Below, piece by piece: positions 27,690-30,600 of a stretch of 64,000 nucleotides of DNA. Positions within the stretch are counted from its first letter, which is position 1. Each line of letters starts with the position of its first letter. The position numbers and the translations under genes were made by a program. The stretch lies in NCBI GenBank assembly GCA_040954595.2, contig CM082598.2, positions 124,001 through 188,000 of the forward strand, written 5' to 3'. The DNA is from Balanoglossus misakiensis. Lineage: Eukaryota; Animalia; Hemichordata. The notes beneath the pieces were generated by a model. The model saw only the letters and a program-made list of their open reading frames with translations. It did no database searches and had not been told where the DNA came from.

Positions 27690-30600
27690 TTATTTGCGAA
27701 CAATTTCATAGTTTTCAACAAACCAGTCAACTGTCTCCTTGATGGCTGAAGTAAAAACAAAACAAAACAAACCAAAATAAACAAAATCAAGATAGCAATG
27801 GTGACAATTCAACTTATCCAGAAATTGAAACAAATTCAACAAAGTGTGCTGTTGTCAACAAGAATCACACATTAAAGTCTTGTTTGCAATAATTATGTTG
27901 ATATGTTGATAAACTGACTAAATTTAACACATAGATATATCTTTAACCTTTTGTTAAAATGTTTCTTATTATTGATAGATCCTTCAGATTAAATACATAC
28001 CTTGCTTGATTGGAGTAAACTGAAAATCAGGAAGATATTTCCTCATTTTCAAGTTACTGACAGTCATCTTGAATCGTCCATCAGGCTTGCTGGTGTCAAA
28101 CTGTCAATCATATATTACGGAAATCAAACCATGAGCGTGAACCAATCAAATTTAATCACTGACACCCATAGAGTCAATTCTATTCACTTAATCTTTTACT
28201 TTTAAATATGGTTAGATAAAAAATATCAAGATATCTATGTTCAATACTCCACAAAACTTTACCAGTCAACATTATTTTTCATAAGCATTAAAGGCCAACG
28301 ATTGTCTGCATGTGCCAAACCAGAGACTCTGGTTACAGAAATTGTATACAGCCAATCGCATAAGGCAGTATGCTGTCTTAATAACAGACAAGATGGCAGC
28401 GACCATAGTCTGTGTCTGTGATCGGGAAAAAGAAGTCTGGTCTAGACGTACATGTAGTCTTCTACACTGATGAGATTGCGTTGGATGTAACAATATTATC
28501 TAATAGTTGGAAGGGAACCATATATGGTTGATTTCAATCATGTTCAACGTTCCATTTGCAATACAAGCTGCCCGCTAGGCTTTTGCCAAAACAAAACAAA
28601 AATCATCTTGTTAGATGACTGTATGGTTACAGTAATTATGGCTCTAAACAAAGAGCGATCCCAGGCATTCATGAAAGGATACAATGACTTCTCCTTTGAA
28701 ATCAAATGCTTCTACAACCATCTCTACAACCTCTTTGATGGTCACTTCATGTTTTTCTTCCACAGAGAGGATGATTGGAGAGATTTCATCATAATTATGC
28801 ACAGCCCATACAATTAATCTGGCTAAGTCCAGAGAGTAGATGAACTGACGACGAGATGATCCACTTCCCCAGACGACCAATGGTTTCATTTCCTCTGTTG
28901 AAAAATAACGTGTCCTCATTCAGGTTACAATTGTCACAAAGTCTTCTCCTCACATATGTTTTACACATGGAGCTCGTTTTCACAAGTCCCGTGCCTTAAT
29001 TCTCGCAGCCATCATGAATTTGAACTCAAAGCAAGGCCAATGGGAAAAAGTTAACCAATCTCAACAAGGGATTTTCCCCATTGGCTTCGCTTTTACTTCA
29101 AATTCATGATGGCTCCATGAGGGCGCTAAAATTATAAAAAAAGGATGAATCGTCAGTCAATTTAGCCACAGTTGGGACTTATCGACTAGACGTCATGCGA
29201 CATGTTTAGTTAATCTTATTTTAATTGAGATTACAATCATATCCAATAAATGCATCAAATAAAATTGAGATTATGCAATAGATGGAAGCTTCCCTTTCCC
29301 CACCTTATAGGCAACAGGATGGTTTCGCTTATCTCTTGTATTGATGCAATATTTGTGTGCACTAGTGCCTAATTCTATTTTAATTCAAACTATGCTCAAA
29401 CTAATCTCATTTTCTCCATCTGTGAATTAGTTATTTCCGTTAGTTTGCTATCATGCTAATAATTTCTTGAATGCTCACCATACAAAAGTGAAATGCTTTT
29501 TTTTTCATGCATGCATACATGTACTTAGGGGAGAAGGGTGGTAATTTGTTGACACCCACCAAAGCAATTTATCAATGGCAACCCCTCAGCCTCTCCACCA
29601 GGATAGAGAAACTGACCAGGGTCTTTAACATTGATGGAAAAAAATTCTTACTCTTTGAAGAGTAGACTTTGTTAATGGTAGCGGAGAGGACTCCTCCATC
29701 GGCCACTCTGAAGTTTGCAAACGGTCCAAACACATTGGTAGGAAGAATGCAGGTGAATTTACACTTGTGCTGTTTGTTATAACCCCTGAAACCAAAGAGA
29801 TGTCAGGATTAAACAAATGTTGCTGAAAGTCAGCCAAACATGAGGAACCACAGCATAGCTTGTGTGATATATATTAGGGAAGGGGGATATGTCTGCAGTT
29901 ATACCAATTGAAAAGCTTATATTACAGAATGTGTGTACATAACTTAGAATATCTCAGTGCATGGGACTCTTGCTTTGAACATGGCCAAAGAAAACACATT
30001 TGAAAGTCATTCAACGAGACCTTAAAGTCTTCATTAATTGTAGCTAGGAACTTAGCTAGGGTTTATGGCACCATTGAACATTCCATATGCGTAAAATATG
30101 GCTTTGATGAATGGATTCACTGGGTACCGCGACATATTTTACTTGTATGCGGTACGGTATTCTCTTATGCTGCTTAAGTGTGAGACGACAGCATAAGAGA
30201 ATACCGCGAAGCACATGTAAAAAATGTTGCTGTACCCTACATCAGATTTTAATCAGAATGGGATTCTACTCACCTGTTGAGGACATCAATCATTCTTTTG
30301 GCATTTGCATAAGCAAAATCAGATGCATGAGGTTCTCCTTTAAAAATCATTGTCTCGTCGACAGGATATGTACACTTGGCAGGAAAACACATACTTGAAA
30401 GACACGATACACACTTCTGAACACCAAACTTGTAACAGTTATACAGAACATTGTCGTTGATCAGCATGTTACTGCGCTGTTTTGAAAAATAATAGCAGAG
30501 ATGAGGCATCATTTCAGTTTAGTTTTGAACGTGATTCTATCGTGTCTGAACAGCGCACCATCCAACAGATATTAATTTCAAAGAACTAGACCCAGTTAGT

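Follow-up and report, generated by a model that had tools for sequence, protein, structure and literature searches.

A tandem GFUS paralog in the acorn worm Balanoglossus misakiensis with an altered epimerase pair and an intact reductase triad: a candidate reductase-only enzyme

Three tandem GFUS genes in the window

The window analysed here is a 64,000-nucleotide stretch of the Balanoglossus misakiensis genome (GenBank assembly GCA_040954595.2, contig CM082598.2, positions 124,001 to 188,000), intron-rich animal DNA with a GC content of about 35-40%. Six-frame reading combined with splice mapping identified three tandem GFUS genes on its minus strand; a TOLLIP-like gene with C2 and CUE domains lies upstream of them. 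Copy A (36307-33216) has seven exons and an open frame of 314 amino acids, copy B (31488-27690) has seven exons, 316 amino acids and a CDS of 951 nucleotides, and copy C (24857-20772) has seven exons and an open frame of 316 amino acids. Copy B is the gene that a first-pass annotation of this DNA had called copy 2 and placed at 29652..30476. The gene is real, but these limits cover only part of it: its exons lie at 31488-31358, 30945-30831, 30476-30274, 29785-29652, 28894-28683, 28100-28001 and 27745-27690, all on the minus strand. There are no internal stops, and the GT-AG introns match those of copies A and C in position and phase. In all three copies intron 5 starts with GTATCCTT, which we take to be a U12-type donor motif. 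No additional GFUS fragments were found in the 64-kb window by tblastn, and neither tblastn nor a motif scan found alternative exons restoring the Cys or the His discussed below in the interval spanning copies A to C.

The nearest named proteins to the array copies, among the matches listed, are those of Ptychodera flava, Saccoglossus and Glandiceps, and in a 37-row tree one clade (support 97/92) unites the 13 acorn-worm and window rows. Copy C is 92% identical to the canonical P. flava GFUS and has the canonical active-site state, Ser/Cys/Tyr/Lys/His, whereas copy B shares 69-70% identity with the canonical acorn-worm proteins. The top NCBIfam model for copy B is NF047922, at a score below its bacterial cut-off, as is also the case for the canonical protein P0002. 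Both the sequence and the fold of copy B appear to be those of the extended-SDR enzyme GFS: human GFUS is the first match of its exons, and an AlphaFold model of the P. flava protein XP_070543875.1 (P0001), used as a stand-in for copy B (108 sequences, pLDDT 95), aligns to human GFUS with bound GDP-fucose (4bl5) with a TM score of 0.96.

Loss of the epimerase pair and retention of the reductase triad

In the accessible part of a mechanistic study of human GFUS (PMC12362431), Cys116 serves as base and His186 as acid in both epimerisations, and Tyr143 is the acid in the reduction. The C116A and H186A variants have less than 0.01% of wild-type activity, with none detectable, and C116S, some 1000-fold slower, yields about 70% D-altro product. 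The GDP beta-phosphate is bound by Arg215 and Lys282, and the alpha-phosphate by His186 (PMC12362431).

Human numbering was transferred to copy B through a gap-free alignment of exons 3 and 4 with the human GFUS chains 4e5y and 4b8w. The active-site state of copy B is Ser/Met/Tyr/Lys/Gly. Met111 (ATG, 30392-30390, minus strand, as are all codons below) replaces the epimerase base Cys116, and Gly181 (GGA, 29694-29692) replaces the epimerase acid His186. The reductase triad is complete, with Ser109 (30398-30396) equivalent to human Ser114, and Tyr138 (30311-30309) and Lys142 (30299-30297) of the motif YANAK equivalent to Tyr143 and Lys147. Both replacements and the retained YANAK had been reported in the first-pass annotation, which had also listed further pocket changes, including DGRFKMT, and a Cys one residue downstream of the lost one; all are present in the sequence as it described them. 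With Met and Gly at the positions of human Cys116 and His186, normal 3,5-epimerisation is not expected of copy B, and the loss of this activity is, judged from its residues, near certain.

The changes extend well beyond the catalytic pair. Asn135 (30320-30318), equivalent to the sugar-pocket residue Asn140 in human GFUS, is changed to Asp; the start of the GDP/sugar loop is remodelled (His63>Asn, Met67>Asn, Val68>Pro and Phe72>Tyr, within 30861..30890); and Lys277 (28067-28065), equivalent to the beta-phosphate binder Lys282, is replaced by Met. This Lys is present in 214 of 214 canonical representatives having a residue at the position. Three residues upstream, Gln274 is changed to Arg (28076-28074), which might compensate for the loss of Lys282. 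Among the other GDP contacts, the equivalents of Leu76, Lys194, Trp208 and Arg215 are identical and Phe77 is replaced by Tyr; the Asn79 equivalent is also kept. At 19 of 19 NADP-motif positions, chosen by us, copies B and C are identical.

We defined 134 columns with a conservation of at least 90%, 65 of which belong to the substrate domain delimited in the accessible part of PMC12362431. Copy B is altered at 23 of the 134 (canonical representatives: median 1, maximum 12), and 16 of the 23 changes fall in the substrate domain (Fisher one-sided p 0.023). The same enrichment is not significant in P0001 (5 of 9 changes, p 0.46). The distribution in copy B fits a remodelled sugar pocket on what would be an intact cofactor site.

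The rarity of this state was gauged in a census of 233 cluster representatives at 90% identity, drawn from three homologue searches (104/104, best 120 of 5591 and best 120 of 6155). Ser/Cys/Tyr/Lys/His is found in 225 of the 233 listed representatives. The remainder comprises three with Ser/Ser/Phe/Lys/His, all from P. flava; two with Ser/Cys/Phe/Lys/His, from P. flava and amphioxus; one with Ser/Cys/Tyr/Lys/Asn, from Penaeus; one truncated sequence; and a single protein, P. flava P0001, in which Cys and His are both missing (Ser/Ser/Tyr/Lys/Asn). Given the canonical state in 225 and the double loss in one of these 233, the double change in copy B is beyond chance. A profile weighted toward copy B returned no further animal proteins lacking Cys and His among the best 120 of 6155.

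Copy B is under purifying selection

Between copies B and C, dN/dS is 0.185 (bootstrap 0.124-0.251) at a dS of 1.11 (Nei-Gojobori), and in 500 simulations in which point mutations accumulated neutrally to 0.2 changes per site the frame never stayed open (0/500). Copy B is thus under purifying selection and, with a dN/dS of 0.19 against copy C, is not a decaying pseudogene. Assembly damage or a pseudogene as the source of its unusual residues is ruled out by the open frame, the dN/dS and the existence of the P. flava paralog. A three-way comparison puts the branch dN/dS of copy B at about 0.39, against 0.08 in copy A and 0.06 in copy C; these estimates are rough because dS is near saturation. 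Single exons have low dS (0.35 for B/C exon 6, 0.51 for A/B exon 5), which hints at partial gene conversion within the array; any such conversion would blur the array tree.

Copy B could still be a recently disabled duplicate heading for loss, its changes being damage accumulated under relaxed selection. It has the longest branch of the array (0.46-0.51), and its 23 conserved-column changes are nearly twice the canonical maximum given above. But the frame is open, the splice sites are intact, including that of the presumed U12-type intron, dN/dS is well under 1, and the same double loss is found in a P. flava paralog, so we regard this explanation as highly improbable.

A counterpart in Ptychodera flava

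P0001 has Ser for the catalytic Cys and Asn for the His, and keeps the triad as well as Lys282. Five residues are common to copy B and P0001 and absent from all of the 15 other rows: E44Q, F72Y, N135D, Y172F and L186T. The two sequences pair with support of 96/95, 100/98 and 89/93 in trees of 37, 22 and 17 rows, respectively. Clades composed of window copies were rejected only at the borderline (AU p 0.046 and 0.050). When 38 pocket columns were removed the pair was neither supported nor rejected (AU p 0.17). P0001 is likely to be the orthologue of copy B, with convergence on the same pocket as the alternative, because the grouping rests on the pocket columns.

The three P. flava paralogs that lack both Cys and Tyr have full-length frames, which suggests that catalytically crippled copies can persist in the acorn-worm array.

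Complementary loss in copy A

Copy A, which adjoins copy B, keeps Cys and His and has Phe138 in place of the reductase Tyr (TTT, 35068-35066, minus strand), a change that the first-pass annotation overlooked. The corresponding human variant, Y143F, is limited by reduction yet keeps 1-3% of activity in fucose synthesis, according to the accessible part of PMC12362431. Copy A is predicted from its residues to be epimerase-biased, and copies A and B thus appear as complementary losses of the two GFS half-reactions, side by side. A P. flava protein with the same Tyr to Phe change, P0127, pairs with copy A at support of 92/82 and 84/72. Amphioxus also has a Tyr to Phe paralog, in which the change is present in all eight members of the cluster (8/8); orthology with copy A is not supported, as the amphioxus rows lie outside the acorn-worm clade.

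Comparison with known systems and distant relatives

Copy B resembles GFUS (TSTA3, FX) and E. coli Fcl (GMER) in its placement within the animal clade, its Ser/Tyr/Lys triad, its NADP motifs and its guanine-pocket residues. Unlike GFUS, it has Met for Cys116, Gly for His186, Met for Lys282 and Asp for Asn140. Because two defining catalytic features are absent, it should not be annotated as a GDP-L-fucose synthase.

Closest in kind are DdahC and MlghC of Campylobacter jejuni, which carry Thr/His and Tyr/Arg, respectively, at the Cys/His pair and share 44% and 38% identity with E. coli GFS. In the accessible part of their description (PMC7949155), they are GFS-like C4 reductases of GDP-keto-heptoses that have no epimerase activity and act after separate epimerases. 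They also reduce unepimerised GDP-4-keto-6-deoxymannose; the C4 configuration of that product is not determined in the part of the report consulted (PMC7949155). Like copy B, they have the GFS fold (PDB 7ANH and 7ANC), a retained triad and an altered Cys/His pair. They differ in being only 24-25% identical to the P0001 model and in serving bacterial capsule heptose pathways with cupin epimerases, whereas copy B is of animal GFUS origin and the candidate to partner it, copy A, is another GFUS paralog. By analogy, DdahC and MlghC are likely the best model for how copy B works, although copy B arose separately. Descent of copy B from these bacterial proteins is rejected, as B nests among acorn-worm GFUS.

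Rmd and Tld reduce the GMDS product without epimerisation, giving GDP-D-rhamnose or GDP-6-deoxy-D-talose (accessible parts of PMC9415975 and PMC3718619), the same net step as proposed for copy B. Membership of copy B in these families was rejected: B is a GFUS derivative, GFS entries top all searches, and neither the 42 PDB entries matching the GFUS profile nor the fold-search matches listed include one named Rmd or Tld. The first-pass annotation had proposed a convergent origin of such an activity from GFUS. The DdahC/MlghC precedent, as far as the consulted text of PMC7949155 goes, means that convergence on a pure reductase of the GFS fold would be new for animals and not new in kind.

A more distant set, made up of the 150 best-matching of 11732 representatives (50% identity), contains 119 canonical proteins, the remainder being mostly fragments or proteins with single changes. 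In six of the 150, all metagenomic (P0312, P0346, P0369, P0406, P0324 and P0380), Cys and His are both lost and Ser/Tyr/Lys are kept. P0312 reads SSMAYPAK where copy B reads SSMCFPAK, with Met at the Cys position in both. Four of the six form a clade of their own, and a tree that unites these four with B and P0001 is rejected (AU p 0.0135), so loss of Cys and His with retention of the triad happened several times. Viral relatives of P0324 have the canonical Cys/His at six of six loci. P0346, which is labelled a 3-dehydrase by its source, and P0427, from the cluster of P0312, carry an N-terminal PLP domain (PF01041 in P0346) with an SHH motif, within which our choice of the catalytic His is an assumption. 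His in place of Lys marks 3-dehydratases in the accessible part of PMC8987622. By analogy, a fused 3-dehydratase-like PLP domain would hand over a 4-keto sugar. A metagenome scan with P0346 found no relatives.

The Cys one residue downstream of the lost base is Cys112 (TGT, 30389-30387), which aligns with human Ile117. Were copy B to epimerise through this shifted Cys, its product could be GDP-L-fucose or just one epimer, for example GDP-6-deoxy-D-altrose. In Ser110-x-Cys112 the canonical Ser-x-Cys spacing recurs with a shift of one residue, the accessible part of PMC8787198 names GFS-like synthases that form a single epimer, and Penaeus paralogs with Cys kept and His changed to Asn exist. Against this, His186 is lost as well, and human H186A is dead (PMC12362431, in the part consulted). 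Position 112 is likely buried, since canonical representatives have Ile or Val there in 224 of 225 cases (Ile 218, Val 6); P0001 has Ile there and no Cys, and P0312 reads Ser-Ser-Met-Ala. We therefore consider epimerisation through Cys112 improbable.

Proposed function of copy B

We propose that copy B is a reductase-only enzyme, predicted to use NADPH to reduce a GDP-4-keto-6-deoxyhexose at C4 and so to yield a donor other than GDP-L-fucose; on balance this is probable. NADPH binding would be retained, the remodelled pocket would take a keto sugar without prior epimerisation, and reduction at C4 would proceed through Tyr138, Lys142 and Ser109, with C3/C5 enolisation absent. Points for a reductase-only function are the open frame, the dN/dS, the kept triad and NADP motifs, P0001, DdahC/MlghC and the dyad-less representatives; points against it are the dead human Ala variants, the loss of Lys282, the crippled P. 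flava paralogs and the highest branch dN/dS of the array. The reductase-only claim of the first-pass annotation thus stands as the best single reading, with the pair lost and the triad intact. That annotation weighed neither the dead C116A and H186A variants nor the KK to KM change that removes Lys282.

Several of the same observations would suit a pseudoenzyme, kept for binding NADPH or a GDP-sugar or for pairing with a GMDS or canonical GFUS subunit and so tuning fucose supply without turnover. The human dyad-to-Ala variants are inactive (accessible part of PMC12362431), Lys282 is lost, three full-length P. flava paralogs lack Cys and Tyr, and the branch dN/dS is raised. Since C116A and H186A are dead, removal of the pair would not by itself unmask direct reduction, and more pocket changes would be needed; with Lys282 replaced and the alpha-phosphate binder His186 lost, GDP binding by copy B may be weak. 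However, Ser/Tyr/Lys are retained in B and P0001 despite many changed conserved neighbours, independent dyad-less lineages retain the triad too, and GFS-like enzymes whose dyad is naturally altered do work as reductases (PMC7949155, in the part consulted). We find a pseudoenzyme rather unlikely, though worth serious weight.

If copy B is a reductase, its product depends on the substrate and the face of attack. D-altrose differs from D-mannose at C3 alone and from L-galactose at C5 alone, so that both GFS products, L-fucose and 6-deoxy-D-altrose, share the C4 configuration of D-mannose; the mostly D-altro product of C116S means that GFS sets C4 in this way. In the ancestral pose, hydride from the GFS face would therefore give a D-manno C4, that is, GDP-D-rhamnose from the GMDS product, and 6-deoxy-D-talose would require the opposite face. 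The first-pass annotation had left both sugars as possible products: GFS stereochemistry favours D-rhamnose if the pose is kept and speaks against talose, and a substrate from copy A is a further alternative. Overall, GDP-D-rhamnose from the GMDS product is a tentative and somewhat doubtful assignment. Should copy A release epimerised keto sugars, copy B could instead reduce a C3- or C3/C5-epimer from that source, which is unlikely; a relay from A to B would pay only with a different product, because copy C already makes fucose. A product from some other keto sugar is decidedly improbable, and 6-deoxy-D-talose through a flipped pose a shade more so.

To our knowledge, animals are considered to turn the GMDS product into GDP-L-fucose alone, and D-rhamnose is known mainly from bacteria. 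The accessible part of a survey preprint (10.1101/854612) confines the GDP-D-rhamnose pathway to Pseudomonas, Aneurinibacillus and a chlorovirus, and records nematodes and a chordate among the organisms with the UDP-L-rhamnose pathway. Our literature search, confined to non-subscription sources, found no paper on these acorn-worm GFUS paralogs and, among the titles listed, none on animal GFUS variants or on acorn-worm 6-deoxy sugars.

Implications

We suggest, as a serious possibility that falls somewhat short of probable, that tandem duplication in ptychoderid acorn worms has divided the work of fucose synthase between a reductase-only copy B and an epimerase-biased copy A, beside a canonical copy C, and that these animals make GDP-D-rhamnose or another GDP-6-deoxyhexose that would be new as an animal donor. 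Such a split between A and B would be akin to the way in which bacterial capsule pathways mix and match epimerases and reductases.

The array and its relatives offer natural variants for each catalytic step of GFS: copy B, P0001, copy A, the P. flava Ser/Phe/His copies, the amphioxus Tyr to Phe paralog and the Penaeus His to Asn protein. These would reveal which pocket changes allow reduction without epimerisation, which the human Ala variants cannot. If the proposal is true, a deuterostome would have a reductase derived from GFUS, the nucleotide-sugar donors of animals would gain a member, and unrecognised sugars would be predicted in acorn-worm glycans or mucus.

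Changes at the reductase tyrosine

Copy A of the three tandem GDP-L-fucose synthase (GFUS) genes (36307-33216, minus strand) retains the cysteine and histidine of the epimerase pair, and phenylalanine replaces the reductase tyrosine (codon 35068-35066). It also carries Cys107>Ser and a deletion of two codons at the start of exon 4. The same Tyr>Phe change is present in the GFUS protein P0127 of the acorn worm Ptychodera flava, and in all eight cluster members of an amphioxus GFUS paralog. Among the six GFUS-like clusters seen in P. flava, the paralogs P0038, P0046 and P0112, which form a single clade (support 100/99), have Cys>Ser, Tyr>Phe, Arg143>Leu and Pro165>Leu in common, making them candidate pseudoenzymes.

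Gene structure and genomic neighborhood

Intron 5 starts with GTATCCTT in copy A (34074-33742), copy B (28682-28101) and copy C (21409-21256), all on the minus strand, and each has a branch-point-like stretch close to the acceptor. These features mark intron 5 as a U12-type intron retained in each duplicate. Synonymous distances are 0.35 between copies B and C in exon 6 and 0.51 between A and B in exon 5, both far below those of exons 1-4. These low values are a hint of partial gene conversion within the array.

Immediately upstream of the array lies a TOLLIP-like gene with C2 and CUE domains (41322-38714, minus strand), which provides a synteny marker. Also on the minus strand are a 1396-codon Gln/Ser/Thr/Pro-rich open frame (47279-43089), for which no Pfam match was found, a sulfotransferase-domain gene (about 51200-49291; PF00685 in one exon), whose PGSGNTW motif suggests the WSCD type, and an achaete-scute-like bHLH exon (57126-56671; PF00010). 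By translation, exons at 2089-3482 (plus strand) putatively resemble AMN1, those at 7157-5580 (minus) PIH1D1 and those at 12132-16205 (plus) a tubby-family gene.

Changes at the epimerase pair in other lineages

Three of nine members of a shrimp (Penaeus) GFUS cluster, P0185, P0245 and P0248, have His>Asn with the cysteine retained; the helix carrying this change also has Ala-Gln in place of Gly-Leu, and the resulting DGNVLPAQ is similar to DGNVMPAT of P0001, the P. flava counterpart of copy B. In the metagenome proteins P0346, P0427 and P0355, a PLP 3-dehydratase-like domain is fused to a GDP-fucose synthase (GFS)-like domain, which lacks the cysteine in P0355 and both residues in P0346; for P0427, loss of both was assigned through its cluster-mate P0312. 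Such fusions would fit 3,6-dideoxyhexose synthesis.
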